From: Syntrophales bacterium
GTDB lineage: Bacteria; Desulfobacterota; Syntrophia; Syntrophales; PHBD01
Assembly (NCBI GenBank): GCA_963668175.1
Contig: OY764159.1
Span: 1,728,001-1,792,000, forward strand
Direction: 5' to 3'
DNA: 64,000 bases
Below the pieces are notes generated by a model. That model searched no databases and was not told the DNA's origin. It was given only the letters and a program-made list of their open reading frames with translations. The translations under genes and the position numbers were made by a program. Below are positions 24,425 through 64,000 of this stretch, piece by piece (the stretch's first letter is position 1; the number at the start of each line of letters is the position of its first letter).

Positions 24425-24500
24425 GGGCCCTTAGCTCAGCAGGTAGAGCAACTGACTCTTAATCAGTAGGTTGTCGGTTCGATCCCGACAGGGCTCACCA
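24425..24500 (+). tRNA. tRNA-Lys (anticodon CTT)
   Basis: GGGCCCT/AGGGCTC acceptor stem, TAGCTCAG D-arm, CTGA-CTCTTAA-TCAG anticodon arm, GGTTCGATCC T-arm, encoded CCA; 76 nt. Confidence 0.97.
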
Positions 24501-24508
24501 GAAAATAC

Positions 24509-24546
24509 AGGGGTTTCGAGCGTTTCCGCTTGGAGCCCCTTTTTTT
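24509..24546 (+). terminator. Terminator after tRNA-Lys, carried on the left arm of module 1
   Basis: AGGGGTTTCGAGCG / CGCTTGGAGCCCCT plus T run; near-identical copy at about 27353-27389. Confidence 0.75.
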
Positions 24547-24771
24547 CGTTTCCCGTCAGACCTCGTCATTTTGATCGTTTCCGCACCCAAATTGAACCGC
24601 CATGCGGCTGCGTCGCGGAATGCGTATTTCAAAAAGCCTTTGGATGGCGAAACGAAATCGGCGACAAAGATTTCCTCTGTTGCATCTGCTTATCGGTTGC
24701 GCGAATAATCGATGAGCAATGAAGATAACCCGTTGTGATCTTCAAATCCGGACGGGTTTTCCGGGGGCGTG

Positions 24772-26694
24772 TCAGGCAGTCTGAAATCCGCTTGTCTGTT
24801 TCACAAGCTTCATAAACAGTTCTCTCTGTTTTTCCAGAGCAGACTTATATTGCATGGCCTCTTTTATGAAAGTGCTATTCTCGATAACCATTTTTAAGCG
24901 TTTTCTGGCCAGGACGATTTCATTTGTATTAAAATGAAGATTCTTACCAAGCAGGGCTATGATATCATTCGCACTGCAATAATTTTCATCGGACCTGGAG
25001 AGGATGTTGGAAAATATGAAGCTGAAAATATCTTGATCAAACTCATACAGCTCCTTCAAGAATTGAGATACTGCGTGAGATTTATTCCTGCCGGCCCAGT
25101 CCGTGTAATTTATGCCTGTCTTGGTTCTGGTTTCGTTGCTGTCCAGCTTATCCATGGCTTCTGATATATCCCTTTCGGAATAATTGGTAATGAGGAACCC
25201 GGCCCACACAATCCAGGTGATGGCAAGGGCATACAGGTCATGCGACCAGGATGCCTTGTAGGTGCGGAATTCATCAAATTGCTTAACCGTAATGGGTCGT
25301 ATATAGCCTTTCGTGCCTGCAAGACTTCCATTATGGCCTTCCGTCACGCACGTTCCATAATCCATAAGTGCAAACGTGCCGTCCATCGAAGCAAAAATGT
25401 TACCCGGTTTCAGGTCCCGGTGAACGTAATGCTTCTGATGGCATGTGTTCAAGTCATTTGCAATATCCCACAAGAGGAGGCGAAGGAGGGAGCGACCGTC
25501 TTGCTGTTCTTTAAGATCTTTACGCAGGCTTGTGGACGGGCACATGAGGTTCATGACCATATAGGCCTTGATGCCTCTCTTGGGATCCTTCGGCGATCTC
25601 ACGACTATCTTGTCGATGATCTTTGCCTTGCTCTGGAGCTTCTTCATTAATTCTATCTCTTTATCAAAATCCTTCAGAACAGAGTCCTGGGTGACTTTCC
25701 TCGGCTTCTCCTGTTGTTTCGGAAGGGGCTGCGGATTGGGAACGGACTTCTTCTTGGGGGCAAAGAAAAGTTTGAAGAGATTCTGTTGGGGAGCGGTCGT
25801 CTGTTTGGGGACCTCCTTTTTGGGGCCGGGGGGAGGGGATGCAGGGTGGGTATACTGATTGTGAACTTCTTTTATGGCGAGAATGTCCTTCTTCCCCTCC
25901 GATTCCATGCCATAACGGATTTTGCCGAAACTGCCTGCGGCTGAAGACTGCGCCACGATATAACCTTTGTACAGCTTATTGGCGCTGTATCTATCCGGCA
26001 CAAGCAGGGAAAGACGCGTGGTTTTTGCTTCGGAGCCCTTGCCGATCGTTATCTTGAATTCACCGTTTGGAGATTGCGGTGTCTTGTATTTCTTCCCGAT
26101 TCCTCCCATCGCATACTCCGGAGTGATGGACGGGGTGAATGCAAGAATTTGCTGGGCCCAGCCGTGATGGTCATAGATGTTGTCCTTGTCCCATATCCGG
26201 TATATTTTGGGTGCAGGGCCTTTTGAAACAAGGTCGAAACCGCTGTCGTCGTGGATACTTTCGCTTTGGAAAGGGCTGGCTTGAACCAAATCGTAAGGAG
26301 CATCAATCTCCGGCTGTTCCTTAAGCTTGTCAATTTCATTAAGCAGAATCGCCCCCTGGATATCAAGAATCGATTCCCAGGCCTTTTGTTCATTTCTTGA
26401 TCGGTCCGCCTCCGTGATCGATCTGATGAGGTCCATAATGACATGATCGGATGGCAATGGTGATTTCTCCATATATTCATATGGTTCCACTTTGCAAAGA
26501 AGAAGCCAGCATGTCGGCAGGATGTTCGTCTGACCGTTCTTGAATACAAGATCCTCGACGATATGCTTGACCCAGCGAAGTTGCCAGGGGGCAGTTAAAA
26601 ACGGGTCCGGTTTGATACACAAAAAGCCCTGGTGCAGAACCTCACCCTTAATGGCCTTGCCGGACTTCGGGTCTCTCCAGGTTTCTCTGGGCAT
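24772..26694 (-). CDS. Hanks-type Ser/Thr protein kinase with an uncharacterised N-terminal region
   Basis: AGSFGKI, LAIKE, HRDLKPGN, DYG, AGTKGY, DLYALA; AAAGGAGG RBS before ATG 26694. Confidence 0.85.
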   Translation of the reverse strand: MPRETWRDPKSGKAIKGEVLHQGFLCIKPDPFLTAPWQLRWVKHIVEDLVFKNGQTNILPTCWLLLCKVEPYEYMEKSPLPSDHVIMDLIRSITEADRSRNEQKAWESILDIQGAILLNEIDKLKEQPEIDAPYDLVQASPFQSESIHDDSGFDLVSKGPAPKIYRIWDKDNIYDHHGWAQQILAFTPSITPEYAMGGIGKKYKTPQSPNGEFKITIGKGSEAKTTRLSLLVPDRYSANKLYKGYIVAQSSAAGSFGKIRYGMESEGKKDILAIKEVHNQYTHPASPPPGPKKEVPKQTTAPQQNLFKLFFAPKKKSVPNPQPLPKQQEKPRKVTQDSVLKDFDKEIELMKKLQSKAKIIDKIVVRSPKDPKRGIKAYMVMNLMCPSTSLRKDLKEQQDGRSLLRLLLWDIANDLNTCHQKHYVHRDLKPGNIFASMDGTFALMDYGTCVTEGHNGSLAGTKGYIRPITVKQFDEFRTYKASWSHDLYALAITWIVWAGFLITNYSERDISEAMDKLDSNETRTKTGINYTDWAGRNKSHAVSQFLKELYEFDQDIFSFIFSNILSRSDENYCSANDIIALLGKNLHFNTNEIVLARKRLKMVIENSTFIKEAMQYKSALEKQRELFMKLVKQTSGFQTA

Positions 26695-26869
26695 GATGCC
26701 TCCTTTGTCGAGTAGGGGTGATGCAAATATTCCCGTGCGCATTCCTGTATCTTGGGTTTAACGACTGCGATCTTGAAGCGGAGTGGGGAAACTGTGAACT
26801 GAATTGTGGGTATTGTCAAGATTAAATATCAGTAAAATGACTTAAGAATAGACCGGCATCCCCCCGAAA

Positions 26870-27228
26870 TCATGCAGGCGGGAGGAGGGGAAGGGTCGGG
26901 GCGCGGTCGCTCCGGACGGCGAGGCCTTTGAGGACGCCCATGACGAGTTCTCCCGTCTTGTGGTCCAGGGCGCTTGTCGGCTCGTCGCAGACGACGAGTT
27001 TCGGGTCGTGAACCAAAGCGCGGGCGATGGCCACCCGCTGCTGCTGGCCGCCTGAAAGCTCATTCGGCAGGGACGCCTCCCGCCCCGTCAGCCCCACCTG
27101 GGCCAGGCACTCCGTAGCCCGGACCGCTGCCTTCTCTTCCTTCTGTCCGTTGATGAGCAGCGGGATGCCGATATTCTCCACGATGCTTAAGGTCGGGATG
27201 AGATTGAAGGCCTGGAAGACGAACCCGC
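26870..27228 (-). pseudogene. Internal fragment of a LolD/MacB-type ABC ATPase
   Basis: [24 protein letters not shown] and DEPTSALD present; Walker A and H-loop absent. Confidence 0.85.
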
Positions 27229-27236
27229 TTTGCTGC

Positions 27237-27444
27237 CATGTGGTCATTTTTCGTCGTCAAATGCTTATTCATTTCATCATGTTAAAATAGCGCATATTAC
27301 TCTTAATCAGTAGGTTGTCGGTTCGATCCCGACAGGGCTCACCATGAAATACAGGGGTTTCGAGCGTTTCCGCTTGGAACCCCTTTTTTCGTTTCTCGTC
27401 AAATCTCGTCATTTTTAACCAGTTCTGCACCCAAAATGCACCCA
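27237..27444 (+). repeat. att junction B (conserved left arm + tRNA-Lys 3' core + right arm)
   Basis: Core 27299-27344 is identical to 24455-24500; left arm shared with junctions C and D; right arm similar to 24501-24600. Confidence 0.9.
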
Positions 27445-27832
27445 CTACGCAATCTTCATTTTCCCCATTTCGGCCTTCATCATTTCATCAACGACCGGGA
27501 GGAATTCTCAACCCCCTGACACGATTCTTTCGGTGGAATCATGAAGTCATGTTTGTTCTCCGTCTCCTTCGGGCAATTCAACCATGTTGTCAATCAGGAC
27601 CCGCTGCCCAATCACTAATAATTAGAGGATATACTGCTTGGGAGTGCGCAAACGGTTAGGGAGTAATAACGCCCGTGACTCTTTCGAGACTATCCTGTCC
27701 CCCATATCCTTTTGGGGCAACTTGTGATAAATTCACTCCCAATAAAAGATAAAAACTCAGGGAGGCATTAGGGTGGAGAAGTTCATCCGTTGCGGTCCCG
27801 GAGGGCAAATTATTAACCAATACAGGATAAGT

Positions 27833-29500
27833 ATGAAATATAAACAAACTTATGCGGAAGTGAAGAAGGGCAACGACCTGTTAGAGGCGGAGATCAAGCG
27901 GCAGGCCAAGTTAAAAAGAGCCCTCATAGAGACAGAGAGTTTCTACCGAACGATCTGGGAAAGCTCGCTCACCGGCCTCTACATCGCCCAAAACGGCATT
28001 TTCCAGGCCGTTAACCCCATCCCGGCCCTGTTCACAGGCTACAGCAAAGATGATCTCGTGGGAAAGAAATCGGACAGCATCATCCATCCCGACGACAAGG
28101 AGGCCGTAAAGAAAAACGCCCACGCGATGCTTCTGAAAAAGAGCTCCACGCCCTACGAATTCAGAATCCTCTCTAAGGACAAACATATCCGCTGGGTCAT
28201 GGAATACGTCGCGCCTACGACTTATAACGGAAAGCCGGCAATCCTCGGCAATTTCATGGACATCACCGCCCGGAAGGACTTTGAATCGAAACTGAAAGAA
28301 TCGGAGAACCTTTACCGGACCATCTTTGAAAATACAGGTTCGGCAACGATCATCATCGAGGACGACATGACCGTCTCCCTCATGAACTCCGAGTTCGAAA
28401 GGATGACGGGATACCGAAAGGAAGAGTGGGAAGGGAAGAAGAAGTGGATCGAATATATCTCGAAAGAACAGCAGCCCTGGATGAAAAAATACCATAAACT
28501 GCGGAGACTCAATCATGAGGCCGCCCCACGCCGCTACGAACACGAGATCATCCGCAGTGATGGGAGTGTCGTTAGCGTTCTGATCACCATCGACATGATT
28601 CCCGGTACCAAGAAGAGTGTCGCCTCCCATACGAACATCACCGATTGGAAAAAGGCCCAAGAGAAACTGAAGGAATCTGAAAATCTTTACCGCGCGATTT
28701 TTGAAACGACTGGGGCCGCAACGGTCATCATGGAAGACGACATGACTATCTCCCATATGAACTCGGAGTTCGAGCGGATGACGGGCTATCGCAGAGAGGC
28801 ATGGGAAGGAAAGAAAAAATGGACCGAATACGTCCTTAATGAAGATCTTCCTTGGATGATTGATTACCATACTCAACGTCGCCTCGACCGCAGCGCTCCC
28901 CCGCGGAACTACGAGCATCGGCTGGTGGACAGCAAAGGGAGGATCAGGCATATGTACCTTACCGTCGATATGATCCCCGAAACGAAAAAGAGCCTCGCGT
29001 CCTTCGTGGATGTTACGGACTGGAAGGAGGCGGAAACCCGCCTGAAGAAAAGAGAAGAAGAACTCCAGGCCAAGTCCCGGAACCTTTCGGAATTAAACAC
29101 GGCCCTTCGTGTCCTCTTGAAACAGCGTGAAGATGACCGCGAAGAGTTCGAGGAAAAGGTGCTGTCCAACGTCAGGGAATTTGTCCTGCCTTACGTTCAA
29201 ACATTGAAAAAAAGTAAGATGCCGGCGAAAGACCTGGCCTATGTGGGCATTCTGGAGTCGAATATTCAGGACATCATCTCGCCATTCGCCCGCAAGATTT
29301 CGTCCAAGTACATGCAGCTCACGCCCAAAGAAGTGCAGATAGCCTACTTGATCAAGGAAGGCAAGACCAGCAAGGAGATCGCCGAGGCGATGAATCTCTC
29401 CAAGTGTGCCGTCGATATCCACCGTTACCGGCTCCGGAACAAACTGGGCCTGAACAACAAGAAAGCCAACCTGAGAATGCACCTGATGAACATTTCATAA
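27833..29500 (+). CDS. Multi-PAS domain LuxR-family transcriptional regulator
   Basis: Three PAS/PAC repeats (IHPDDK..., ESENLYR.IFE.TG twice); C-terminal LTPKEVQIAYLIKEGKTSKEIA...HR..LRNKL HTH. Confidence 0.9.
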   Translation: MKYKQTYAEVKKGNDLLEAEIKRQAKLKRALIETESFYRTIWESSLTGLYIAQNGIFQAVNPIPALFTGYSKDDLVGKKSDSIIHPDDKEAVKKNAHAMLLKKSSTPYEFRILSKDKHIRWVMEYVAPTTYNGKPAILGNFMDITARKDFESKLKESENLYRTIFENTGSATIIIEDDMTVSLMNSEFERMTGYRKEEWEGKKKWIEYISKEQQPWMKKYHKLRRLNHEAAPRRYEHEIIRSDGSVVSVLITIDMIPGTKKSVASHTNITDWKKAQEKLKESENLYRAIFETTGAATVIMEDDMTISHMNSEFERMTGYRREAWEGKKKWTEYVLNEDLPWMIDYHTQRRLDRSAPPRNYEHRLVDSKGRIRHMYLTVDMIPETKKSLASFVDVTDWKEAETRLKKREEELQAKSRNLSELNTALRVLLKQREDDREEFEEKVLSNVREFVLPYVQTLKKSKMPAKDLAYVGILESNIQDIISPFARKISSKYMQLTPKEVQIAYLIKEGKTSKEIAEAMNLSKCAVDIHRYRLRNKLGLNNKKANLRMHLMNIS

Positions 29501-29504
29501 TTTG

Positions 29505-29583
29505 TTACAAATTTTCCACAATTTTTGTAATATTTATGTAATTAGCGTTTGATAATATTACAATTTCGTGACAACTTTTGTAA
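29505..29583. promoter_or_regulatory. Two TTACAA-N14-TTGTAA palindromes upstream of hbd (candidate operator)
   Basis: 29505-29530 and 29558-29583, offset 53 bp, in an AT-rich intergenic region. Confidence 0.55.
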
Positions 29584-29744
29584 CATTCATCAAACATTGA
29601 TTAAAACCCTTCCTTGCCCCTAAATACACCCATCACAATAAAACTGGTCCGCGGCAGTCCAAGCAGCATCTATGATCGGGCCCGACATTTCGGGACTTTC
29701 GCGGAAGTGCCGGTTTTCCACCCAACACAAGGAGTAGATTAACT

Positions 29745-30608
29745 ATGAAAATCAATACAATAGGAGTAATCGGGGCGGGGAACATGGGGCGTCAGATCGC
29801 CCTGCAGTGCGCCCTGTCGGGTTTCGAGGTTTACTGCACGGACACGATCGCCGTTGTTCTGCAAAGCGCCGAGGCCTTTTCGCGCAAGTGGCTCGCCGAC
29901 CGCGTCGCCAAGGGCAAGATGGCCGAGGATGAAGCGAAGACGGTAGGCGCCCGCCTGCACTATACGGCCGAACTGGCCGAGGCCGCCAAGGGCGCAGACC
30001 TCATCATCGAAGCCATCATCGAGATATTGGAAACGAAGCGGACGCTCTTCAAAGAGCTGGACAAGCTCTGTCCGGCCCACACGATCCTTGCGACCAACAG
30101 CTCGTACATCGTGAGTTCCAGGATCGCCGACGCCACGAAACGGCCCGACAAGGTCCTGAACATGCACTTCTTCAACCCGGCCCTCGTCATGAAGCTCGTC
30201 GAGGTCGTCCAGGGTCCCCACGTCTCCGACGAAACGGTCGAGACGGTCATCGAAGTCGGCAAGGCGTTGGGCAAGGTGCCCACACGGGTGAACAAGGAGA
30301 TCTACGGCTTCATCTGCAACCGGATGTTCAGCGCCATCACCAAGGAGGCCTGCTATCTCCTGGATCTGGGCATCGCCTCCATCGAAGACATCGACAACGC
30401 CGCGAAGAACGGCCTGGGGCATCCGATGGGTCCCCTGCAGCTCCTCGACATGACGGGCATCGACCTCGAATACTACGTCTCCATGGAACGTTACCAGGAG
30501 ACGCGGAACCTCGCCGACAAGCCGAGTCCCGGCCTCGTGGAGCGTTACGCCCGGGGCGACTACGGCAGGAAGACGGGCAAGGGATTCTACGATTACACGA
30601 AGAAGTGA
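29745..30608 (+). CDS. hbd: 3-hydroxybutyryl-CoA (3-hydroxyacyl-CoA) dehydrogenase
   Basis: GVIGAGNMG, IEAIIE, ATNSS, MHFFNP, GHPMGPL. Confidence 0.9.
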   Translation: MKINTIGVIGAGNMGRQIALQCALSGFEVYCTDTIAVVLQSAEAFSRKWLADRVAKGKMAEDEAKTVGARLHYTAELAEAAKGADLIIEAIIEILETKRTLFKELDKLCPAHTILATNSSYIVSSRIADATKRPDKVLNMHFFNPALVMKLVEVVQGPHVSDETVETVIEVGKALGKVPTRVNKEIYGFICNRMFSAITKEACYLLDLGIASIEDIDNAAKNGLGHPMGPLQLLDMTGIDLEYYVSMERYQETRNLADKPSPGLVERYARGDYGRKTGKGFYDYTKK

Positions 30609-30639
30609 GACGGCGACGTTTTCCGGAAAGGATAGAGAC

Positions 30640-31404
30640 ATGAATTACGAAAACATTCAGTTCGCGGTGAGCGGGGCGACGGCCGTTTTAATGCTGAACC
30701 GTCCGAAGGCGATGAACGCCCTGAACCGCGCGCTTGTGGACGAACTGGACCATGCCGTGGACCGGATCGCGAACGACCCGTCCATCGCGGCGGTTGTCCT
30801 CTCGGGCGAGAAGAACTTCGCGGCGGGGGCGGACATCACGTCGATGGTGGAGATGGACCCGGAAGCGGCGAAGGCGTTTGCCTTCACGCCGGCGTATCAG
30901 AAGATCGAAGACCTGGCAAAGCCGACGATTGCCGCGATATCGGGCTTCGCCCTGGGGGGCGGCCTGGAGCTGGCCCTGGCGTGCGACATCCGGATCGCCG
31001 GTCCCGATGCGAAGCTTGCCTTCCCCGAGATCAATATAGGGATATTCCCCGGCGCCGGGGGGACGCAGCGTCTGCCCCGGCTGGTGGGACCCGCCCGGGC
31101 AAAGGAGCTGATCTTCCTGGGGACGACGCTCGACGCCCAGAAGGCGCTCGAATACGGTCTCGTGAACAGCATCGCGGACGATCCGCTGGATGCGGCCATG
31201 AAGATGGCGTTGAAGCTGGCGGGGAAGCCCGCCGTGGCCCTGGCGCGCGCGAAGGAATGCATCAACATCGCCTCGGAGTCGGGCCTTAAGGCGGGACTGA
31301 AAGCCGAGGCGGAGAAATGGGGCAGCCTCTTTACGACGGCGGACCAGAAGGAAGGCATGCGGGCCTTCCTGGAGAAGAGGAAACCGGTCTACACGGGCCG
31401 ATAA
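30640..31404 (+). CDS. crt: Enoyl-CoA hydratase (crotonase)
   Basis: LNRPKAMNAL, FAAGADI, ALGGGLELALACD, PEINIGIFPGAGGTQRL. Confidence 0.9.
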   Translation: MNYENIQFAVSGATAVLMLNRPKAMNALNRALVDELDHAVDRIANDPSIAAVVLSGEKNFAAGADITSMVEMDPEAAKAFAFTPAYQKIEDLAKPTIAAISGFALGGGLELALACDIRIAGPDAKLAFPEINIGIFPGAGGTQRLPRLVGPARAKELIFLGTTLDAQKALEYGLVNSIADDPLDAAMKMALKLAGKPAVALARAKECINIASESGLKAGLKAEAEKWGSLFTTADQKEGMRAFLEKRKPVYTGR

Positions 31405-31422
31405 CACACAGAAGGAGCAGTT

Positions 31423-32604
31423 ATGAGAGACGTGGTCATTATCGGCGGTGCGAGAACCGCCATTGGAAACTATATGGGATCGCTGGCGGGGTTCAACTCC
31501 GTCGCGCTGGGCATCTTTGCGCTGAAAGGCGCCCTTGAGAAGACGGGGGTGGCCATGGGCGACCTGGAGTGCCTCGTTGCTGGTCACGTGAACCAGGCGG
31601 GTGCGCCGGGGAACTCGGCCAGACACATCGCCATGCGGGCGGGCCTGCCGATTACGTCCTACGCCTACACGGTGCACCAGCAGTGCGCATCGTCCATGCG
31701 TGCGGCGGAGTGCCTGTCCCAGGACATCATGCTGGGGAAGTACGACGTGGGCGTCGTGGTGGGCATCGAGTCCATGAGCACGGCGCCGTATCTCCTGATG
31801 GGCGCCCGGAAGGGATACCGCCTCGGGGATGCGGAAAAGGTGCAGGACAGCCTCATGATCGGGGGCCTGGTCGACGATCTTCTGGGTTATCACATGGGGA
31901 TCACGGCGGAGAACATCGCGGCCGATTACGGGATCACGCGTGAAGAGCAGGACGAGTTTGCCCTCATGAGCAACATGCGGGCGTGCAAGGCGATCCAGGA
32001 GGGGTGGTTCAAGGACGAGATCGTCCCGGTGGAGATCAAGACGAAGAAGGGGATATCCGTCTTCGATACGGACGAGCATCCGCAGGCGAACACGTCGATG
32101 GAGGCGTTGGCGAAGCTGAAGCCCGCCTTCAAGAAGGACGGGACGGTGACGGCGGGGAACGCCTCCGGACTGAACGACGCGGGATCGGCCCTGATCATGA
32201 TGTCGGCGGAAGCGGCGAAGGCGAAGGGCTTCAAGCCTGTCGCCAGGGTCGTCGCCTCCTCCCCCGGTTCGGTGGAGCCCCGGATCATGGGCATGGGTGT
32301 GGTTCCCGCGGTGCGTAACGCCCTGAAGTTCGCGGGGCTTTCGCAGGACCGGATCGATTACTGGGAGCTGAACGAGGCGTTTGCGGCGCAGGTTTTGGGA
32401 GTGAACCGCGAGTTGAAGATCGGCCTGGACCGCGTGAATGCCGTGGGCTCGGGGATCGGCCTGGGTCATCCGGTGGGTGCGACGGGCGCGCGTCTCATCA
32501 TCACCATGATCAACGAGATGAAGCGCCGGGGCGTGAGATACGGCTGCGCCTCCCTGTGCGCAAGCGGCGGACCCGCCCATGCGTTTATCGTCGAATCTAT
32601 CTAA
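31423..32604 (+). CDS. Acetyl-CoA acetyltransferase (thiolase)
   Basis: QQCASS (catalytic Cys), NEAFAA, GHPVGATG, SLCASGG. Confidence 0.93.
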   Translation: MRDVVIIGGARTAIGNYMGSLAGFNSVALGIFALKGALEKTGVAMGDLECLVAGHVNQAGAPGNSARHIAMRAGLPITSYAYTVHQQCASSMRAAECLSQDIMLGKYDVGVVVGIESMSTAPYLLMGARKGYRLGDAEKVQDSLMIGGLVDDLLGYHMGITAENIAADYGITREEQDEFALMSNMRACKAIQEGWFKDEIVPVEIKTKKGISVFDTDEHPQANTSMEALAKLKPAFKKDGTVTAGNASGLNDAGSALIMMSAEAAKAKGFKPVARVVASSPGSVEPRIMGMGVVPAVRNALKFAGLSQDRIDYWELNEAFAAQVLGVNRELKIGLDRVNAVGSGIGLGHPVGATGARLIITMINEMKRRGVRYGCASLCASGGPAHAFIVESI

Positions 32605-32641
32605 CGCAGCGATTGCGAAACCATATAATGGAGAAGAGAAT

Positions 32642-33778: not shown

Positions 33779-33796
33779 AAGCGGCCGGAGGCACAT

Positions 33797-35131: not shown

Positions 35132-35153
35132 TTTTAAAAGTGAGGGAAAGGGG

Positions 35154-36455: not shown

Positions 36456-36577
36456 AATAGGAGTTAAGAACCTACGGAACGGACGGCAGATACAGCCAGG
36501 ACCTTTTAGAACGGGGTGCTTGATATCTGCCGTCCGTCCTACCGTCCGACAAGGAACAGACATCAGAGGATTTGACC

Positions 36578-37105: not shown

Positions 37106-37144
37106 ACATGGCGACAAAAGATTTCAAAAGAAAGGAGCAAACAT

Positions 37145-37594: not shown

Positions 37595-37675
37595 TACGGT
37601 CTGCGATTGCAATTCGCCACCGTTACCATATGCACCTCGGGGGAAGACACTTACATCAACAAAGGAGAATTTGAT

Positions 37676-46446: not shown

Positions 46447-46458
46447 TCATTAAAGGAG

Positions 46459-49998: not shown

Positions 49999-50099
49999 TC
50001 TGAAAAACCGATGCTTTTCCGGAAGACACAAGGCACGAATCAAAAAAATCACAATCATAATAATGGACTGCAGCCGGTCAAGCCGCCGGCCGTCGATGA

Positions 50100-50115
50100 C
50101 GGCATGCAAATTGCC
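50100..50115 (+). promoter_or_regulatory. Sigma54 (-24/-12) promoter of the aco-like operon
   Basis: CGGCATGCAAATTGCC (GG-N10-GC); an AcoR-like activator is encoded in the same module. Confidence 0.6.
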
Positions 50116-50172
50116 ATTGCTTGGATACACGCAAGATCATCACGACCGGATCGAAGACACAAGGAGGCATCC

Positions 50173-51156: not shown

Positions 51157-51159
51157 CTT

Positions 51160-52134: not shown

Positions 52135-52231
52135 CGGAAAGTCAGGCGGGATGAAAAGGAAGAAAAGAGAGAGGATCGATAGGAAGGATCTGAAATATCA
52201 AAACAGCCGAAATCTTGAAGGAGGGTTGAAG

Positions 52232-53563: not shown

Positions 53564-53644
53564 AAGCGAGCGAGGAAAAGGGCGGGAAGATTCAGGAGCA
53601 GGGCATACAAACGATCAATAAACTCAAGCGAAGGAGACTCGAAA

Positions 53645-54643: not shown

Positions 54644-54692
54644 GCTTCGCCGGGCCGGGAATTCTATGCACTTGAGGGTTGGAAAGGAGAAA

Positions 54693-56030: not shown

Positions 56031-56163
56031 CTGCTTGCGGAGACGGTTTGTATGGAAAACGGCCGGATGAAACGCGCCTGTTCTCTTCATCCGGCCGATG
56101 ACAATGTGCCGTCAGGAACTGTATTCTCATATGCCGTTTCCGATAATATCCCGACCGACGGCA

Positions 56164-56895
56164 ATGAACTTAAGGGGAAGACTGTACGTGAGCAGTGCGC
56201 CGGAATGGCAGTATGACGAAAGTAAGTTCCCCGGTATCGACTACGCACGGGACGAGGTTGTCGCCGCTTACGATTGCCTCCATAAAAAATTCCGGGACTA
56301 TGCGAAGGCGGCCGACGAGATCGTTCGCCGTCTTGGTCTTGGCGCCGGCAGCACGGTGATCGATTTCGGTTCGGGTACGGGGGCCTTCGCCTTGCATGCG
56401 GCCAAAGTATGCCGAACGGTTTATGCCGTCGATATCTCGGCGGCAATGATCGAATACTGCCGCCGGCGGGCAGCGGAGCTGGGACTGACGAACATCGTGT
56501 TCCGCCATGGCGGTTTGCTGTCATACGAACACAAGGCCGAGGCGGCCGATGCGGCGGTGTGCGTGGCCGTGCTTCATCACCTGCCGGATTTCTGGAAGGC
56601 GGCCGCCCTCAGCCGCTGCCGGGACGCGCTGAAGCCGGGGGGAAAACTTTTGCTCTTCGATATCGTTTTCCCCTCCGGAGAAGCCGATCTGACGCAAGAG
56701 ATCGACGGCTGGATATCGTATCTCAATACACTGGCCGATGCGCGCTTGGCGGAGGAAGCGGCGATCCATGTCCGGGAAGAGTTCAGCACATATGACTGGA
56801 TCATGGAAGGCATGATCCGAAGAAGCGGTTTCCATATCGATTCGGCGGAGTATGCAGCCGGCTTTGCGGCGACCTATATCTGTACAAATAAATAA
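56164..56895 (+). CDS. Class I SAM-dependent methyltransferase (start uncertain, possibly GTG 56188)
   Basis: VIDFGSGTG, YAVDIS, VLHHLPD, LKPGG. Confidence 0.85.
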   Translation: MNLRGRLYVSSAPEWQYDESKFPGIDYARDEVVAAYDCLHKKFRDYAKAADEIVRRLGLGAGSTVIDFGSGTGAFALHAAKVCRTVYAVDISAAMIEYCRRRAAELGLTNIVFRHGGLLSYEHKAEAADAAVCVAVLHHLPDFWKAAALSRCRDALKPGGKLLLFDIVFPSGEADLTQEIDGWISYLNTLADARLAEEAAIHVREEFSTYDWIMEGMIRRSGFHIDSAEYAAGFAATYICTNK

Positions 56896-56957
56896 TGGAG
56901 GCGGAAGGCGGGCGGCCGTTCGGCGCGTGCCTTCCTGCAGCGGAAGGAGTGTGGAAC

Positions 56958-58217
56958 ATGGCGGTGAACGTCATCATGCCTCAACTGGGTCTGACGATGA
57001 CCGAGGGCATGGTTACCAAGTGGCATAAGGCGGCCGGCGAAAAGATTGCGAAGGGCGAAGTCCTGGTGGAGATCATGACCGAAAAGATTACCCAGCAGAT
57101 TGAATCGCCCGCAGACGGCGTCGTTTTGGCCATTCTGGTTCCGGAAGGGGCAACAGTGCCGGTCAAAGCTTTATTGGCCGTCATCGGCGAAGAAGGAGAA
57201 CGGGTGGATCATACTGCGCCCACCGGAAATAATGAAGACGAAGGGCCGAACGGGCAATCGAATGTCGCTGCCGTCAAGGCGTCGCCGGCGGCCAAAAAAC
57301 TGGCCCGCGAAAGCGGTGTCGATCTGACGCTGGTGACAAGTACGGGCAGCGGCGGGCGGCTGACGGAAAAGGATGTGCTGCGGTACCTGGACGGGCAGAA
57401 AAAGAAAATTCGTGCAACGCCCCTGGCGGCGAAAATCGCCGTAGAACAGAACATCGATCTGTCCGGGATAAGCAAGGAAGGCAGAATCGCCAAAGCGGAC
57501 GTATTGGCGGCAGTCGCGAAAGCGGAAGGCCCGTCACCCGGGGCGGAGGAGGCGTCATCCGTGCCCCTCGCCGGGACGCGGAAAATAATTGCAGACCGGA
57601 TGAGTTTGAGCTGGCATACGGCGCCGCATGTGAATCTGACCGTGTCGGTTGACATGTCGTCCGTCGTCGGTCTGAATAGGAACACCAAAGCCGAGAAGAA
57701 ATTTTCCGTTACGGAAATGATGGTCGCCGTTGCCGCCCGGGCATTGTCCGAATACGGCGACATCAATGCCAGTCTCGTGGACGGCAAGGTGATGCGGTAC
57801 AAGACCGTCAATATCGGTGTGGCCGTCGCCCTCGATAAGGGATTGATCGTCCCGGTCATCAGGGATGCCCAGAGAAAAGGCTTGCCCGCGATCCGGAGGG
57901 AAATCGCCGATCTCGCCGCCAGGGCGCGGCAGGGGGGCTTGCTGCCCGAGGAAGTGACCGGCGGGACGTTCACGATAACCAATCTCGGCATGTTCGGCGT
58001 GGACCATTTCGCCCCGATCATCAATCCGCCGGAAAGCGCCATCCTGGCCGTGTGCCGCGTCGTCGACCGGCCGGTGGTCGTGGACGGCGCCGTCGAAATC
58101 CGGCCGATGGCGAACCTGTGCCTGTCCTTCGATCACCGTCTGATCGACGGCGCTCTGGCCGCCAGGTTCATGGCGCACGTCCGCGAATTGATGGAACAGC
58201 CGCTGTTGCTGCTCTAG
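56958..58217 (+). CDS. Dihydrolipoamide acyltransferase E2 (AcoC-like)
   Basis: Lipoyl domain EIMTEKI, two E3-binding repeats (ASPAAKKLA, ATPLAAKIA), TFTITNLG, SFDHRLIDG. Confidence 0.92.
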   Translation: MAVNVIMPQLGLTMTEGMVTKWHKAAGEKIAKGEVLVEIMTEKITQQIESPADGVVLAILVPEGATVPVKALLAVIGEEGERVDHTAPTGNNEDEGPNGQSNVAAVKASPAAKKLARESGVDLTLVTSTGSGGRLTEKDVLRYLDGQKKKIRATPLAAKIAVEQNIDLSGISKEGRIAKADVLAAVAKAEGPSPGAEEASSVPLAGTRKIIADRMSLSWHTAPHVNLTVSVDMSSVVGLNRNTKAEKKFSVTEMMVAVAARALSEYGDINASLVDGKVMRYKTVNIGVAVALDKGLIVPVIRDAQRKGLPAIRREIADLAARARQGGLLPEEVTGGTFTITNLGMFGVDHFAPIINPPESAILAVCRVVDRPVVVDGAVEIRPMANLCLSFDHRLIDGALAARFMAHVRELMEQPLLLL

Positions 58218-58269
58218 GCCGATGAAGGAACATATCCTGCGATCGGTAATAAAATGATGAGGTAGGCGA

Positions 58270-59670
58270 ATGAAAAGAGTCGTCGTCATAGGCGGAGGCC
58301 CTGCGGGCTACGTGTCGGCCATCCGCGCCGCGCAACTGGGGGCGGAAGTCCATCTGGTGGAAAACGGCCGGTTGGGCGGCACATGTCTGAATGTCGGCTG
58401 TATTCCCACCAAGGTGCTGCTCCATTCGGCCGATCTGTACCGCCTGGTCAGGTGCGGTAAAATTGCCGGTCTGAGTGCGGAAAAAGCGGATATGGACTGG
58501 CCGGAATTGCTGCGCCACAAGCAGGCGGTAATCGCCCGATTGGTCGGGGGCGTCGAAGGCTTGTTGAAGGCGAACAAGGTCGAGGTCCATCGGGGCCTCG
58601 CTTCCCTCATGGACGGCCGCACGGTGGAGATCGAGAACGTCCGGCCGCAGAGGCTGACCGCCGATGCCGTTGTCCTGGCAATGGGATCGGTGCCGCTCAA
58701 GTTGCATTTTCCCGGAGCCGATCTGCCCGAGGTGATAGACAGTACGGCAGCGCTGGAACTGCGGCATGTGCCGAGCTCGCTGGTCATCATCGGCGGCGGC
58801 GTCTTGGGCGTGGAGTTCGGGGCCCTGTTCAGCGCCTTGGGCTCCCAAGTCACGATCGTCGAAATGCTTCCGGAAATTCTGCCCGGGCTGGACAGGAAGA
58901 TTGCCGCCGCCGTGAAGCGGGAGATGGAAGGCCGCGGCATCAGCTTCCTCACCGGCAGCCGGGTTGCCGGTGTAAGTAAGGGTTCCACAGGCCTGACGGT
59001 CAAGGCCGTTGGGGGCGATACCGCTCGTGATCTGTCCGCCGATTATGTGCTGGTGGCGGCAGGTAGAGTGCCCGCAACGGAATATATCGGCCTGGAAAAG
59101 GCGGGCATAGAAATGCGTGGTGCAAAGATCGCCGTAGACGAAAATTTCCGTACCAATGTCCCTGGTATTTATGCCGCGGGCGACTGCAACGGTGAACTCA
59201 TGCTGGCTCATGCGGCTTCCGCCCAGGGGATCGCAGCCGTGGAGCATGCACTGACGGGGCATGCTTCCTATCATAAAAACACCATCCCGTCCTGCATCTA
59301 TACTTCCCCGGAAGTCGCCTCCGTGGGATGGACAGAAGAAGAGGCGGATCGTCAGGGATTGCAATATAAAGCCGGCGTCTTTCCGCTGGCGGCGAACGGA
59401 AAGGCCTGCATAGAAGACGGTTCGTCGGGACTCATCAAGATCGTGGCCGGGGCCAGGTACGGCGAAATTCTCGGGGTGCATATTTACGGTCCCCGTGCCA
59501 CGGAGCTGATCGCCGAGGCGGCTTTGGCCATCCGCCTGGAAGCGACGGCGGACGAGCTGGTTTCCACGATTCATCCCCACCCGACGATCAGCGAAGCGCT
59601 GGGGGAGGCGGCGCTTGCGGTGAACGGCAGCAGCATTCATTATTTCCGCAGGCCGTCATCCTTTCAATAG
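58270..59670 (+). CDS. lpdA: Dihydrolipoamide dehydrogenase E3
   Basis: GGGPAGY, GGTCLNVGCIPTK, HPHPTISE. Confidence 0.95.
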   Translation: MKRVVVIGGGPAGYVSAIRAAQLGAEVHLVENGRLGGTCLNVGCIPTKVLLHSADLYRLVRCGKIAGLSAEKADMDWPELLRHKQAVIARLVGGVEGLLKANKVEVHRGLASLMDGRTVEIENVRPQRLTADAVVLAMGSVPLKLHFPGADLPEVIDSTAALELRHVPSSLVIIGGGVLGVEFGALFSALGSQVTIVEMLPEILPGLDRKIAAAVKREMEGRGISFLTGSRVAGVSKGSTGLTVKAVGGDTARDLSADYVLVAAGRVPATEYIGLEKAGIEMRGAKIAVDENFRTNVPGIYAAGDCNGELMLAHAASAQGIAAVEHALTGHASYHKNTIPSCIYTSPEVASVGWTEEEADRQGLQYKAGVFPLAANGKACIEDGSSGLIKIVAGARYGEILGVHIYGPRATELIAEAALAIRLEATADELVSTIHPHPTISEALGEAALAVNGSSIHYFRRPSSFQ

Positions 59671-59677
59671 GTAAACT

Positions 59678-60352
59678 ATGGACGGAAACAACGGCAGGAA
59701 CAGACGATGCGCCTTCCAGCGGGAAGGGGTCGTAACGTACGAGCACGGCCTGGAACTGCAGGAAACCGCGCGCGGTCTGGTGGAGAAGGGTGAGTGGGAC
59801 GGGATTTTGCTCCTGCTTGAGCATGCGCCTGTGATCACCGTCGGGAGCGGCGGCGGCCTGGAGCATCTGCGTACCGATGCGGATACGCTCGCGGGAAGGG
59901 GCATTGCCGTCCTCCGCTCCGAACGGGGCGGTAATATCACCTGTCACAATCCGGGACAGCTCGTCGGCTACCCGGTCCTCAATCTGAGTCTCTGGCGCCG
60001 CGATTTATCCTGGTACAGGGAATCCCTGGAAGAGACGCTGATCAGGACCCTCGCACGTTTTGGAATCGTCTCCGGGCGAAAGGCCCGTTACAACGGCGTG
60101 TGGGTGGAGGACAGTAAAATCGCCGCCATCGGCGTGACGGTCCGGAACTGGATCACGAAGCACGGCTTTGCCCTGAACGTCCAAAACGATCTGGCCTTGT
60201 TTCAGGACATCGTCCCCTGCGGGATTCGCGATTATGGAGTTACAAGTCTGGTCGAAACGGCCGGCAGGCCGATGGGAATGGACGAAACGGCCGCTGCCTT
60301 GGTTGAGGAATTCTCTTTCGTCTTTCGATGCGCCGTAAGGGAATTGCAATGA
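59678..60352 (+). CDS. lipB: Octanoyltransferase
   Basis: LEHAPVIT, RGGNITCHNPGQLVGYP, KIAAIG, HGFALN, IVPCG. Confidence 0.93.
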   Translation: MDGNNGRNRRCAFQREGVVTYEHGLELQETARGLVEKGEWDGILLLLEHAPVITVGSGGGLEHLRTDADTLAGRGIAVLRSERGGNITCHNPGQLVGYPVLNLSLWRRDLSWYRESLEETLIRTLARFGIVSGRKARYNGVWVEDSKIAAIGVTVRNWITKHGFALNVQNDLALFQDIVPCGIRDYGVTSLVETAGRPMGMDETAAALVEEFSFVFRCAVRELQ

Positions 60353-61263
60353 TCCGAAATGATGGGGCAAAGACACCGGCGATCGATACGAAAAAGCCCG
60401 CGTGGCTGGTTCAGCGGTTCCGCGGCGGCGACGCGTTCAACGGCATGGTCGATCTCCTCACGGATCTCGGTTTGAATACGGTCTGCCAGAGCGCCTCCTG
60501 CCCCAATATCGGGGAATGCTTTAATGCCGGGACGGCCACTTTTTTAATTCTCGGTGGCCTGTGTACAAGGAACTGCCGGTTCTGTGCCGTGCCGAAGGGA
60601 CAGCCGAGCTCACCCGATCCGGACGAGCCGGGAAAAGTCGCGCAGGCGGCCCGGGTCGCGGGTATCAGGCATGCCGTTGTCACGTCCGTTACGCGCGACG
60701 ACCTTGACGATGGCGGTGCGGACCAGTTTGTCCGTTGCATTCAACGCCTCCGCGAGACGGTTCCGGAGACCTCCGTTGAGGTCCTGACGCCCGATTTTCG
60801 AGGTGACAGAAAGGCGTTGCGGGCCGTTCTGGCCGCTGGACTGGATGTGTTCAATCACAATGTGGAGACGGTACCGCGACTCTATCCGTTGGTGAGACCG
60901 GGAGCCGATTACCATCGTTCCCTGCGAATGTTGCGCGAAGCGGCCCGTCGCATCAGGGTTGTCAAGAGTGGGATCATGGTCGGCATGGGAGAGGACGAGA
61001 AAGAGGTGCGAGGGGTCTTTCGCGATCTCGTCGCCGCCGGTGTCGCGGTCCTCACCATCGGACAATATCTGAGACCTTCCCCCGGGCAAATGGAGGTGGT
61101 CGAATACGTCCATCCCGAGCGGTTCCGTTCATACGGGGAGATGGCGCTGGCGGCCGGGTTCAAGTCCGTGGCGGCCGGGCCGCTGGTGCGCAGTTCTTAT
61201 CATGCGGAACGGTTATTTGGAAACGGGATACCCTGCCCGATACCGCCGGCCGACGCCCGGTAA
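60349..61263 (+). CDS. lipA: Lipoyl synthase
   Basis: TVCQSASCPNIGEC, CTRNCRFC, NHNVETV, GPLVRSSY. Confidence 0.95.
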   Translation: MIRNDGAKTPAIDTKKPAWLVQRFRGGDAFNGMVDLLTDLGLNTVCQSASCPNIGECFNAGTATFLILGGLCTRNCRFCAVPKGQPSSPDPDEPGKVAQAARVAGIRHAVVTSVTRDDLDDGGADQFVRCIQRLRETVPETSVEVLTPDFRGDRKALRAVLAAGLDVFNHNVETVPRLYPLVRPGADYHRSLRMLREAARRIRVVKSGIMVGMGEDEKEVRGVFRDLVAAGVAVLTIGQYLRPSPGQMEVVEYVHPERFRSYGEMALAAGFKSVAAGPLVRSSYHAERLFGNGIPCPIPPADAR

Positions 61264-61440
61264 CACATGAGAAATATCTTTCCTGGGAAGGGCTTCATCC
61301 GTCCGGAAGCCTTATCTTGTCATCCCGACTATCCCGTTTTGATGATTCCCTCCCGTATCGCAACAAAGAGCCGGAAATTACAGATAGGCCATGGTTATCA
61401 AAAGCGTGAATATAAAGAAATAAGTTGAATAAGATTAAAA

Positions 61441-61469
61441 TTGACAACGGTCTCGTAATTGTTTAGTAT
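61441..61469 (+). promoter_or_regulatory. Sigma70-type promoter of the XRE regulator
   Basis: TTGACA-17 bp-TAGTAT. Confidence 0.6.
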
Positions 61470-61511
61470 TCATAACCACATACATTAAATCAGACGACGA
61501 CATGAGGAAAT

Positions 61512-62111
61512 ATGATCGAAAAACAGATTGCCGACAGCATGCGAAAGATCCGTAATTCCAAGGGAATGACGCTGAAACAGCTGGGCGAGAAAATCGGCAT
61601 TTCTCCCGGCATGCTTTCTCGCCTGGAAAACAATCAGTCGTCGCCTCCCATTGCGACGCTGGCGAAGATCGCCCAGGGACTGGACGTTCCCATCAGCGTT
61701 TTTTTCGAGGGCAACGGTGACGACACGGATCTCAAATATATCGTGACACGCAGCGACCGGCGCCGCCAGGTGATACGCCGCGGCAGCGATATCGGATTCA
61801 TTTATTACGCCTTCAACACCGCCAGGGACCTTCACCTCATTGAAGCCTTCGTGATGGAGCATCCCCCGCTCCGAAAGAAAATGAAAGTTCTGTTCGATCA
61901 CCCGGGGGAGGAGCTTATTCTGGTATTAAAGGGTACCATAGAACTGGTCTACGGCTATGAGACGATACGCCTGGAGGAGGGCGATGCCATCCACTTCGAT
62001 CCCTCGGTTCCCCATCGCGCCCAGAACGTGGGTAAGGAGAAGTCGGAATGCCTGGTGGTCATTGCCGGTCAAAAGGGCTATTTCAAACGCAACAACGCAA
62101 CATCCGCATAA
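61512..62111 (+). CDS. XRE-family HTH plus cupin transcriptional regulator
   Basis: TLKQLGEKIGISPGMLSRLENN HTH; HPGEE...GDAIHFD...PH cupin. Confidence 0.9.
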   Translation: MIEKQIADSMRKIRNSKGMTLKQLGEKIGISPGMLSRLENNQSSPPIATLAKIAQGLDVPISVFFEGNGDDTDLKYIVTRSDRRRQVIRRGSDIGFIYYAFNTARDLHLIEAFVMEHPPLRKKMKVLFDHPGEELILVLKGTIELVYGYETIRLEEGDAIHFDPSVPHRAQNVGKEKSECLVVIAGQKGYFKRNNATSA

Positions 62112-62363
62112 CGTTATTTTCCCTGCCCGTCTCCCTCCGGAATGTCTTCCGGAGCTTTGTTGCTCTATGCGCGGCGACGCGATCCTTTCCGGTTGGCCCG
62201 AAAGCGGGGCATTGCCTCCTGCAGTTGGTTGATATCGGGGGTAGGTCCATGCCGGACGTGTGCCCGATCAGTGCCTCATCCCTCTAAATAGCCTCTTCAC
62301 AGTGAAGGCGGAATGTCAAACCTGAAAGGTGTCGGTCTTGTTTTTGATGCCGACAAAATAAAC

Positions 62364-62392
62364 TTGACATCGGTAAAAATGTTTACTATTAT
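62364..62392 (+). promoter_or_regulatory. Sigma70-type promoter upstream of the acoR-like gene
   Basis: TTGACA-17 bp-TATTAT. Confidence 0.6.
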
Positions 62393-62598
62393 GCAACTAA
62401 ATACGTACAACGAAACATTTCAACCTGCCTGCAACAGCCGCTCCGCTCTTGACGCCAGATAACCCAGCCTTCGTCGGCTGGTCACAACGCAGCGCATGAA
62501 CTCCCGGCATTCCGGAAGCATAACCGGAATGCGACGAAGAACAGCGCGGCGAATAAACATCTTCATTCGTTTGTTTACTGAATAGTCGGAGGTGAACC

Positions 62599-64000
62599 AT
62601 GGTACGCGAACTTGCCACGAGTATGCCCGATGACTTTGCCGGATTCAACAGATCGGAAGCGAATACCTTTAGACCTTCCACCCTGAGACCCATTATCATG
62701 GATTCCTGGAGAAGGTCGAGGGAGTATGGGGTCTATCGGGAGGAGTGCGTCAGCAGCGTCGTTCTGACTGCCGGGGAATTGGAACTCCTGCTGCGTAAAA
62801 ATTCCGAACTTATAGACGCCGCGATGCCTTTCATACACAATCTATACAGGCTTGTCGCCAGTTCGGGATTTGTGGTTATTCTTGTCGACAGGGAAGGATA
62901 CATTCTGGAGGTTGTCGGAGCCGTCGATCGGCTGGGTATCGCCGAGAATATCCATTATGTCAAAGGAATGAAATGGACCGAGGAACTTGTCGGCACGACC
63001 GCGATCGGACTTGCCCTTCGGGAGCGCCAGCCCATTCAAGTGGCGGGGGATGAGCACTATTGCTGCAGCTTCAGGAACTGGGCTTGCTCGGCGGCTCCGA
63101 TAGTCGATGAAAACAACGATCTTCTCGGCGTGTTGAGCGTCACAGGTTTGAAAAAGTATGTCCACTGCCACACCCTGGGCATGGCGGTGTCGGCGGCCAC
63201 CGCGATGACCAACATCCTGCGGGAAAGAAAAATCCAGAAAAAATTGGAGCAATCGGCCCAGATACATTCCACCATCGTTCATTCCATTTCCGACGGTCTT
63301 CTCATGCTGGACAAGAACGGTATCGTTACCTTCATCAACCCCACCGGGGCGCGAATACTGGGTGTGAAAAGGGATGAAGCCACGGGCAGACATATTTCAT
63401 CGATTGTCGATTTCAAACCCGTCGTGCTCCAGGTATTGGAGAGGGGCCAGGGGTATGCCGACAGGGAATTCTTTATCGAAACCAGGAAAGGCGTCGTGCA
63501 TTTCATCAAGACGGCCATTCCGATCAGGGACAAGGACGGCAACCTGGACGGGGTCATCGATATCTTCCGGGAGATCAAGAAGGTGCGCCAGTTGGTCAAT
63601 CGGATGGTGGGGTCGTCCGCTAAATTCTCTTTCGACGATATCCTGGGTTCGAGCGCGGCCGTCAAGGAAGTCGTTCGCATGGGGAAAATCGCCGCCAACA
63701 GCTTCGCCAATTTGCTGATCCAGGGGGAAAGCGGCACCGGCAAGGAGATGATTGCCCAGGCCGTCCATAATGCAAGCGCGCGGGCGGAAGGGCCGTTCAT
63801 CGCGATCAATTGCGGAGCTATCCCGCGGGATCTCGTCGAAAGCGAATTGTTCGGCTACGAGGAAGGGGCGTTTACCGGGGCGAGGCATAACGGCCGGCCG
63901 GGAAAATTTGAATTGGCCCACGGAGGAACCATATTCCTGGACGAAATAGGCGAGACGCCCGTGGACATCCAGGTAAAACTCCTGAGGGTGCTTCAGGATA
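62599..64000 (+). CDS. acoR: Sigma54-dependent activator, GAF-PAS-AAA+ (AcoR-like); truncated by the window end and absent from the ORF track
   Basis: Read manually: GGAGG RBS, ATG 62599, [36 protein letters not shown]. Confidence 0.85.

Follow-up and report, generated by a model that had tools for sequence, protein, structure and literature searches.

The DNA analyzed here, a stretch of 64,000 nt (hereafter called the window; all positions are counted within it) from a contig of 4,567,304 nt (4.57 Mb) of an uncultured Syntrophales bacterium, carries on the 3' side of its tRNA-Lys(CTT) gene what is probably a tandem array of at least three, and probably four, genomic islets that lack an integrase and are stacked site-specifically at an attB site in the anticodon loop of the tRNA gene. 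This reading builds on repeats of the tRNA 3' end, on conserved arms and hairpins flanking these repeats, on the absence of recombinase genes from the window, on the foreign composition of the DNA downstream of the tRNA gene and on the difference at the same tRNA gene between two conspecific genomes, the second of which carries an integrase gene there. The array fits a three-step scheme published for elements related to ICEs (integrative and conjugative elements) and to IMEs (integrative and mobilizable elements), in which integration is followed by decay to a cis-mobilizable element (CIME) and by accretion of a newcomer (PMC5704250), and it is best read as a series of tandem, decayed, tRNA-anchored CIME-like islands.

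Repeats of the tRNA-Lys(CTT) 3' End

The tRNA-Lys(CTT) gene is the sole tRNA gene in the window according to ARAGORN and Rfam. Its 3' 46 nt (24455-24500), referred to as the core in the following, begin at tRNA position 31, i.e., on the 5' side of the anticodon loop, and recur at 27299, 39401 and 49576, with spacings of 2844, 12102 and 10175 nt between successive cores. All copies are co-oriented with the tRNA gene and confined to its 3' side, and their identity to it drops with distance, from 46/46 via 45/46 to 39/46 positions (0, 1 and 7 mismatches). The copy at 49576 is too diverged for a search allowing 3 mismatches and was recovered by a repeat finder and alignment; none of 100 shuffles of the window gave a core match at 3 or fewer mismatches. 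The locus combines an intact tRNA gene at one end with co-oriented 3' copies that form direct repeats, as is expected of arrays of islands in tRNA genes, and the repeats start at a usual crossover sublocation, the anticodon loop being listed as such in the Islander database (2083 of its islands; PMC4383910). Fragments of tRNA genes are well known as marks of attR sites (PMC9897764; PMC4383910).

An earlier note on this DNA, made from the sequence alone, had described the three recurrences, placed them at functional boundaries and taken them for att-type junctions of elements stacked at a tRNA anticodon-loop site. The recurrences were confirmed, and all three are located between operons, the first between a truncated ABC transporter gene and the gene for a PAS-LuxR regulator, the second between the stop codon of the gene for 4-hydroxybutyryl-CoA dehydratase (AbfD; 39127) and the start of a further regulator gene (39832), and the third between the stop codon of a gene for a major facilitator superfamily (MFS) transporter (49030) and the start of an E1-alpha gene (49948). 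The assignment as att-type junctions is likewise supported by the cores together with the arms and hairpins described below.

Structure of the Junctions

The repeats exceed the 46-nt core. The three downstream copies share an upstream arm of about 65-67 nt (U1, U2 and U3; Table 1) that is missing from the true tRNA gene. Pairwise identities of these arms amount to 49/67, 49/65 and 49/65 (73-75%), as compared to 14-16/67 (21-24%) for the segments just upstream of them. In the alignment, conservation is concentrated in two boxes, a distal one with 19 invariant columns out of 25, CAYGTGGTYATTTTNNGTCGTYAWA, and a core-proximal one that touches the core and is invariant in 14 of 15 columns, AAAATAGCGCAYATT; in the spacer between them, 7 of 22 columns are invariant. 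Every core, including that of the tRNA gene itself, is then followed by a terminator-type hairpin and a T run. The downstream arms fall into two pairs. The region of D0, the arm directly following the tRNA gene, is 87.8% identical to positions 27288-27442 over 156 columns, core included, so that the arm at 24501-24598 resembles that at 27345-27442, and the arms at 39447-39479 and 49622-49654 match each other over 33 nt.

The internal junctions therefore look like attP sites in showing the order P arm, core, P' arm, an arrangement to be anticipated at the boundary of two neighboring elements that integrated site-specifically. Each unit between two cores has a P' arm as its left bound and a P arm as its right bound, both belonging to the related arms described above, in agreement with the attL/attR-type bounds of CIMEs. 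The motif GTNGTCAWWT, which was picked post hoc, has five matches in the window vs. 1.39 expected, three of them in arms, and is present in arms U1 and U3.

Predicted DNA folds of the three junctions, compared without a dedicated attC model, have only the tRNA T-arm and the terminator hairpin in common and share no extended stem (fold z-scores -1.3, -4.8 and -2.1). Arm U2 (39334-39400) can form a long-range stem with sequence beside the core (z -4.8; none of 200 shuffles was as stable), and this type of stem is not shared by U1 and U3. A 161-nt query spanning junction R2 found no match in plasmid and phage collections.

The source being a single contig of an uncultured organism, and the conspecific metagenome-assembled genome (MAG) differing from it after the tRNA gene, the array might be taken for an assembly artefact, i.e., a metagenomic contig that is chimeric or was joined wrongly where a tRNA segment is repeated. 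We regard this as hardly credible, because the copies are not identical (arms 73-75%; cores with 0, 1 and 7 changes) and each is embedded in unique sequence, and because chimeras would not yield three junctions with one and the same order of arm, core and hairpin.

Composition of the DNA on Both Sides of the tRNA Gene

The genes located 5' of the tRNA gene, i.e., lnt, prfB and phoH as well as genes for a lytic transglycosylase, M16 peptidases, a DEAD-box helicase and a methyl-accepting chemotaxis protein (MCP), are ordinary chromosomal genes with a GC content of 0.60 and a mean GC content at third codon positions (GC3) of 0.82. The segments delimited by the cores, termed modules or elements 1 to 4, have a GC content of 0.50-0.57. 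Mean GC3 is 0.695 for module 3 (p 7.8e-5) and 0.714 for module 4 (p 8.6e-5), as compared to 0.822 for the core genes, and the kinase gene in module 1 has a GC3 of 0.57. Module 2 is a mosaic with values between 0.60 and 0.87 and does not differ significantly from the core genes (p 0.26). Taken together, the DNA 3' of the tRNA gene is compositionally foreign.

The Same tRNA Gene in Other Genomes

With the helicase as protein query, 80 loci were obtained, and the window was thereby placed in Syntrophales. Geobacter metallireducens, considered as a source on account of GC content and metabolism, was rejected, and the article on its genome (PMC2700814) reports nothing comparable. One of the 80 loci, L001, located on a 63,483-nt contig from a conspecific Syntrophales MAG, served as comparator and is 99.64% identical to positions 15837-24519 over 8686 columns (8.7 kb). 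The similarity ends just past the tRNA gene, and the modules of the window are not found right after the tRNA gene of L001, which is followed there by a hairpin of the D2/D3 type (compare 39447 and 49622), two tandem GTTGTCATTT motifs and then the gene for a tyrosine integrase of 333 aa (Pfam Phage_integrase, 4.4e-37), which is encoded on the minus strand with its stop codon 66 nt past the tRNA gene. D3 is the arm in the window that comes closest to the arm preceding this integrase gene, and blastn matched L001 positions 8668-8705 to 49622-49662. Between the L001 hairpin and the integrase gene, the post hoc motif GTNGTCAWWT occurs twice vs. 0.31 matches expected. The L001 island (8734-16277), readable for 7.6 kb past the tRNA gene, continues after the integrase with a Pol IV/UmuC-like gene (11021-12343) and a gene for an ApeA-type HEPN protein (12996-14324). 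Four further open reading frames (ORFs) of this island, one of them open at the end of the locus, match no family.

The DNA on the 3' side of the tRNA gene thus combines a foreign composition with variation between close relatives. Judged from the two genomes, tRNA-Lys(CTT) is an integration hot spot the content of which differs between conspecific genomes, and an integrase of cognate type exists in the population. A search for the arm-core junction motif had no match in 185,579 representative genomes, the scan demanding that a 25-nt degenerate pattern be matched exactly, which would miss diverged relatives. As the collection holds the L001 MAG, the three junctions are absent from this assembly. 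Divergence amounts to 0.36% in the flanks of the two loci, but to about 25% between the arms and to 15% in the last core, and the elements consequently did not diverge from one another at this site after the two genomes had separated. They arrived already diverged, either singly or as a block, or else the other genome lost them.

These figures also bear on the idea that a tRNA-derived repeat resembling miniature inverted-repeat transposable elements, or local duplications of the tRNA 3' end, landed between native operons. Such repeats would be in keeping with units that are short (150-210 nt) and intergenic and consist of a tRNA part and a terminator. They are very improbable given that the junction is without match in the representative genomes, including the MAG with the 99.64% identical flank, that the arm boxes occur in none of the 80 fetched loci, that the DNA between the units is foreign in GC and GC3 and absent right after the tRNA gene of L001, that one unit abuts a truncated gene and that all units are co-oriented and lie only 3' of the tRNA gene.

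The 79 loci other than L001 show no synteny beyond the helicase, so that an empty site is not definable among them. None of the 45 loci scanned for it has a tRNA-Lys(CTT) gene after the helicase gene, and neither the core pattern nor the flanking genes M16b, h122, h92 and MCP were found in any of the 79, nor any gene of the modules above 66% identity. Four loci of the Smithella type (L053, L055, L066 and L077) feature the arrangement helicase, unknown gene, purA, tRNA-Lys(TTT). In L053 (14123-17708), genes for a TIR-domain protein and an IS110 transposase come after this tRNA gene; L066 has a gene for a GGDEF protein in that position, and on the basis of this difference the Smithella-type site looks variable, too.

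Proposed Formation of the Array

In the explanation that we favor, each incoming circular element would have carried an attP site composed of a P arm of about 67 nt, a copy of the 46 nt of the tRNA 3' end and a hairpin-bearing P' arm, and a tyrosine integrase would have crossed this attP with the tRNA gene. Each arrival would have regenerated the tRNA gene, supplied it with a new terminator and pushed the older elements downstream, leaving a junction of P arm, core and P' arm between neighbors. The units would now be CIME-like. Their integrase genes would have vanished as the islands decayed or would not have been there in the first place, and for the units to be mobile today, an integrase would have to come from another source or RecA would have to act on direct repeats of 46-150 nt. 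The sequence of insertions, the disappearance of integrases and activity of any kind at present are inferred parts of this scheme.

Search for Recombinases and Competing Explanations

Pfam families of integrases, relaxases, transposases and phage proteins are absent from the 34 ORFs between 24.7 and 64 kb, and 76 stop-to-stop frames overlapping intergenic gaps yielded no Pfam match at E ≤0.01 (76 of 79 such frames were scanned, the other three being annotated genes or their shadow frames). A tblastn search of the window with the L001 integrase gave a best E value of 0.075 and no remnant. The upstream 24 kb contain no integrase gene, so that a recombinase is encoded on neither side of the tRNA gene in the window. 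Remnants of ICE or IME genes are missing from the same ORFs and intergenic frames, and a truncated ABC ATPase gene is the only sign of decay. In lacking integration and transfer genes the units conform to CIMEs, and they do not have the integrase of its own that characterizes each island in a canonical tRNA-island array.

The earlier note had likewise seen no recognizable integrase, relaxase, transposase or phage gene in the modules. Two findings that it had named as speaking against its interpretation, decayed integrases in each module and a repeat scattered over unrelated loci, were not encountered in profile searches and in the representative genomes (exact 25-nt pattern), respectively, and the comparison across strains that it had proposed uncovered, in L001, a locus diverging right after the tRNA gene and carrying a tyrosine integrase at this place. 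While its att-type junctions and recombinase-less modules were thus borne out, its further step, the interpretation of the locus as an integron-like platform, was not. In common with integrons, cargo units are stacked serially at one attachment site, and the unit nearest to it is probably the newest. The integron-like reading fails, however, on the platform integrase, on the attC-like fold and on the type of cassette: within the window, no intI adjoins the primary attachment site, no attC-like fold is shared by the three junctions, and there are no promoterless single-gene cassettes depending on a common platform promoter but operons of 2.8-12 kb with their own regulators and terminators. In addition, the repeats are double-strand, tRNA-derived att cores. 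The integron-like reading is weakened further by the erosion of module 1, the ABC ATPase gene of which is cut at the arm, as ordinary island decay predicts.

A modified version of this idea would be a working system in which operon cassettes, addressable by their conserved arms, are captured, excised and reshuffled at tRNA-Lys by an integrase acting in trans, the gene for which would be situated in a more distal part of the array, at another genomic location or on circulating islands like that of L001. Several observations point in this direction, i.e., three to four consecutive elements without recombinase or remnant thereof, P arms that keep two conserved boxes around a variable spacer in a pattern such as would be expected of protein-binding sites, an integrase-bearing island at the same tRNA gene in L001 with a P' hairpin resembling D2 and D3, the post hoc motif GTNGTCAWWT that L001 shares in its P' region with arms U1 and U3, and a protein 96% identical to the module 2 regulator on a separate 10-kb contig, which suggests that module 2 circulates. 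We nevertheless consider a working system unlikely. An integrase gene is absent from the 64 kb and from the position beside the tRNA gene where L001 has one, and the 4.57-Mb contig, the proteins of which are in the database, is not represented among the 120 best relatives listed for the L001 integrase. Furthermore, module 1 is eroded at its arm, 7 of 46 positions are changed in the last core, the sequence GTCATTT is not enriched overall (11 matches vs. 8.5 expected), a shared attC-like fold is missing and neither an excision product nor an alternative cassette order was seen.

It appears quite unlikely, too, that the array constitutes one large composite island with a single integrase gene beyond the 64 kb, in which the internal junctions would be fossils of accretion in earlier hosts. 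This would agree with the atypical composition of all of the DNA between 24.5 and 64 kb, with module 4 running off the window, with arms that differ by 25% as opposed to 0.36% for the flanks and hence have not diverged in place since the genomes split, and with the documented transfer of whole composites after accretion (PMC5704250). It is at odds with L001, where the integrase gene resides beside the tRNA gene and not at the far end, and with the lack of a relative of this integrase from the contig among the 120 listed; the far end lies outside of the window and provides nothing positive in support.

Stacking of integrase-less islets has to be weighed against several points as well. With no integrase remnant in any element, loss by decay is only inferred and would have to have been clean in three to four elements. 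The strain comparison draws on the single genome of L001 and on 7.6 kb past its tRNA gene, the 79 other loci offer no empty site, the right end of the array is outside the window, and the junction scan, demanding an exact match to its degenerate pattern, passes over diverged relatives. Finally, the seven mismatches in the last core may stem from a different tRNA-Lys of the donor or from arrival of the array en bloc and not from age.

Gene Content of the Modules

The features of the array are collected in Table 1. The three complete modules have sizes of 2.8, 12.1 and 10.2 kb, two of them come with their own PAS-LuxR regulator, and a terminator hairpin is present at each junction.

Table 1. Features of the tRNA-Lys(CTT) locus and the adjoining array.
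Feature	Position	Strand	Evidence and remarks
tRNA-Lys(CTT), attB-bearing gene	24425-24500	+	ARAGORN; Rfam tRNA 71.4 bits; 100% identical to the L001 tRNA
Downstream arm D0, left end of element 1	24501-24598	+	Terminator-like hairpin 24509-24540, then T run (terminator scan)
656-aa orphan protein, C-terminal Ser/Thr kinase domain	24772-26742	-	Pfam Pkinase 2e-16
ABC transporter ATPase pseudogene fragment, 125 aa	26870-27247	-	5' end cut at the edge of arm U1
Junction R1	27232-27442	+	U1 27232-27298, core 27299-27344 (46/46), D1 27345-27442, hairpin 27353-27384
Element 2, 4-hydroxybutyrate/butyrate-type module	27345-39400	+	Pfam, TIGR03948, PDB match
Junction R2	39334-39479	+	U2 39334-39400, core 39401-39446 (45/46), D2 hairpin GGGGTTGCG..CGCAACCCC
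Element 3, acyl-CoA beta-oxidation module	39447-49575	+	Pfam
Junction R3	49511-49662	+	U3 49511-49575, decayed core 49576-49621 (39/46), D3 with hairpin
Module 4, open at window end	49622-64000	+	Pfam, NCBIfam

Module 1 (24501-27298, GC 0.50) contains two genes. The 656-aa protein has no full-length match but itself among 5.8 billion proteins, and none of the families matches its N-terminal ~350 aa. The kinase domain is similar to kinases associated with defence (PADLOC mad6, 2.6e-15, and many PD-T4-6 models), and module 1 may be a decayed defence islet. In the neighboring ABC fragment, Pfam ABC_tran is covered only from profile position 59 to 137 of 137, NCBIfam matches extend over about positions 80-190 of 214-250, and Walker A and H-loop are missing upon reading of the translation. 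Going by these truncated matches, module 1 is a visibly eroded remnant, and a truncated ABC ATPase abutting arm U1 represents erosion of the kind that decay of ordinary islands predicts.

Element 2 encodes, according to Pfam, a PAS-LuxR regulator and four enzymes of the beta-oxidation type, i.e., a 3-hydroxyacyl-CoA dehydrogenase, an enoyl-CoA hydratase, a thiolase and an acyl-CoA dehydrogenase, as well as a CoA-transferase of the butyryl-CoA:acetate type, an MFS transporter, a 177-aa unknown protein, a Usp protein and AbfD. The match to TIGR03948 reaches 618 bits, which is below the cut-off of the family, and AbfD matches PDB entry 1u8v with an E value of 4.7e-218. The genes for the dehydrogenase, the hydratase, the thiolase and AbfD exhibit a host-like GC3 of 0.84-0.87, those for the regulator, the CoA-transferase, Usp and the 177-aa ORF one of 0.60-0.70, and the module may have been assembled from parts of differing origin. 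Element 3 is of similar design, comprising genes for a PAS-LuxR regulator, CoA-transferase subunits A and B, an enoyl-CoA hydratase, a 3-hydroxyacyl-CoA dehydrogenase, a thiolase, an acyl-CoA dehydrogenase and an MFS transporter, and its proteins are paralogous to those of element 2 with 35-60% amino-acid identity.

The two PAS-LuxR regulators (27773-29500 and 39832-41421) are members of a large family in Syntrophales and Smithellaceae. At least three further paralogs with 53-54% identity are encoded on the 4.57-Mb contig itself, the contig with the 96% identical relative of the module 2 regulator has a length of 10,015 nt, and another of the 80 loci, L003, carries similar regulator and CoA-transferase genes near its helicase gene.

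Module 4, the right end of which lies beyond the window, is probably a fourth element. It features genes for E1 alpha and beta, E2 and E3 of a pyruvate dehydrogenase/acetoin-type complex, two MFS transporters, ketol-acid reductoisomerase (ilvC) and a methyltransferase as well as for LipB, LipA, a helix-turn-helix-cupin regulator and a sigma-54 activator. Around the junction between elements 3 and 4, two ORFs on the plus strand, 49079-49498 and 49495-49776 (139 and 93 aa), match no family. The second spans the junction repeat, the translation of the first looks non-coding, and both are probably not genes.

Relation to Known Systems

Literature searches in titles and abstracts brought up no published description of such an array for this lineage. 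Close counterparts are CIMEs and their tandem accretion, described in reviews of IMEs and for elements related to ICESt1 and ICESt3 of Streptococcus thermophilus. They share with the present units that they are flanked by att sites, have lost or lack genes for integration and transfer and form tandems at a target gene's 3' end, newcomers entering the flanking att site and giving rise to chimeric att junctions (PMC5704250). In contrast to these, the array in the window resides at tRNA-Lys(CTT) in a Syntrophales chromosome, consists of three to four units in a row that lack an integrase and have no visible ICE or IME partner, is free of remnants of conjugation genes and carries whole self-regulated catabolic operons; cis-mobilization of the units is putative. 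Being made up of three to four consecutive units without recombinase, remnant or ICE/IME partner in view and carrying whole regulated operons, the array is unusual.

Tandem islands in the Islander database agree with the array in the intact tRNA gene, the displaced 3' fragments at island ends and the crossover in the anticodon loop; 125 tandems of two or more and four of three or more are listed among its 3919 islands (PMC4383910). Islander, as described there, differs in accepting an array only with an integrase for each member, and the array in the window would be filtered out. Composites of ICEs, IMEs and remnants in Faecalibacterium also form tandems of up to four at one site, integrase-less remnants included (PMC12084326), and Bordetella petrii harbors tandem islands at a single integration site in tRNA-Gly (PMC2717098). 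In both, backbones of ICEs or IMEs are recognizable and one or more integrases are present, whereas the window contains none.

The array presents an uncultured syntrophic fatty-acid degrader that would have gained whole self-regulated pathways, i.e., 4-hydroxybutyrate/butyrate-type, acyl-CoA and 2-oxoacid dehydrogenase modules, at one tRNA hot spot, and tens of kilobases of DNA at this tRNA-Lys(CTT) distinguish two genomes with a flank identity of 99.6%. Since arrays of this type are discarded by those island finders that ask for an integrase in every member, integrase-less metabolic islets may be under-counted. If the conserved arms were substrates of an integrase acting in trans, the locus would offer a tractable case of pathway-sized cassette exchange. 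It is conceivable, albeit doubtful, that Syntrophales populations hold a whole family of integrase-less, att-flanked operon cassettes that share the boxed ~67-nt P arm and the P' arm with its terminator and are captured, stacked and exchanged at tRNA-Lys(CTT) by integrases of other islands in the same population, e.g., that of L001; this would amount to a population-level, integron-like market for complete catabolic pathways.

Further Observations Upstream of the tRNA Gene

Within the upstream core with its GC content of 0.60, positions 2258-4870 stand out as a low-GC patch (GC 0.49 at 3001-5000). Pfam gave no match for the ORFs 2030-3220 (minus), 2057-3379 (plus), 3160-3672 (plus), 3313-3666 (minus), 4342-4674 (plus) and 4443-4931 (minus), and the patch may be another foreign insert. 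In the release-factor ORF at 8488-9363 (plus strand), the match to PCRF begins only at profile position 57, so that the N-terminal part of the protein must sit upstream in another frame. A programmed +1 frameshift is known for prfB, and the split release-factor ORF fits this expectation.

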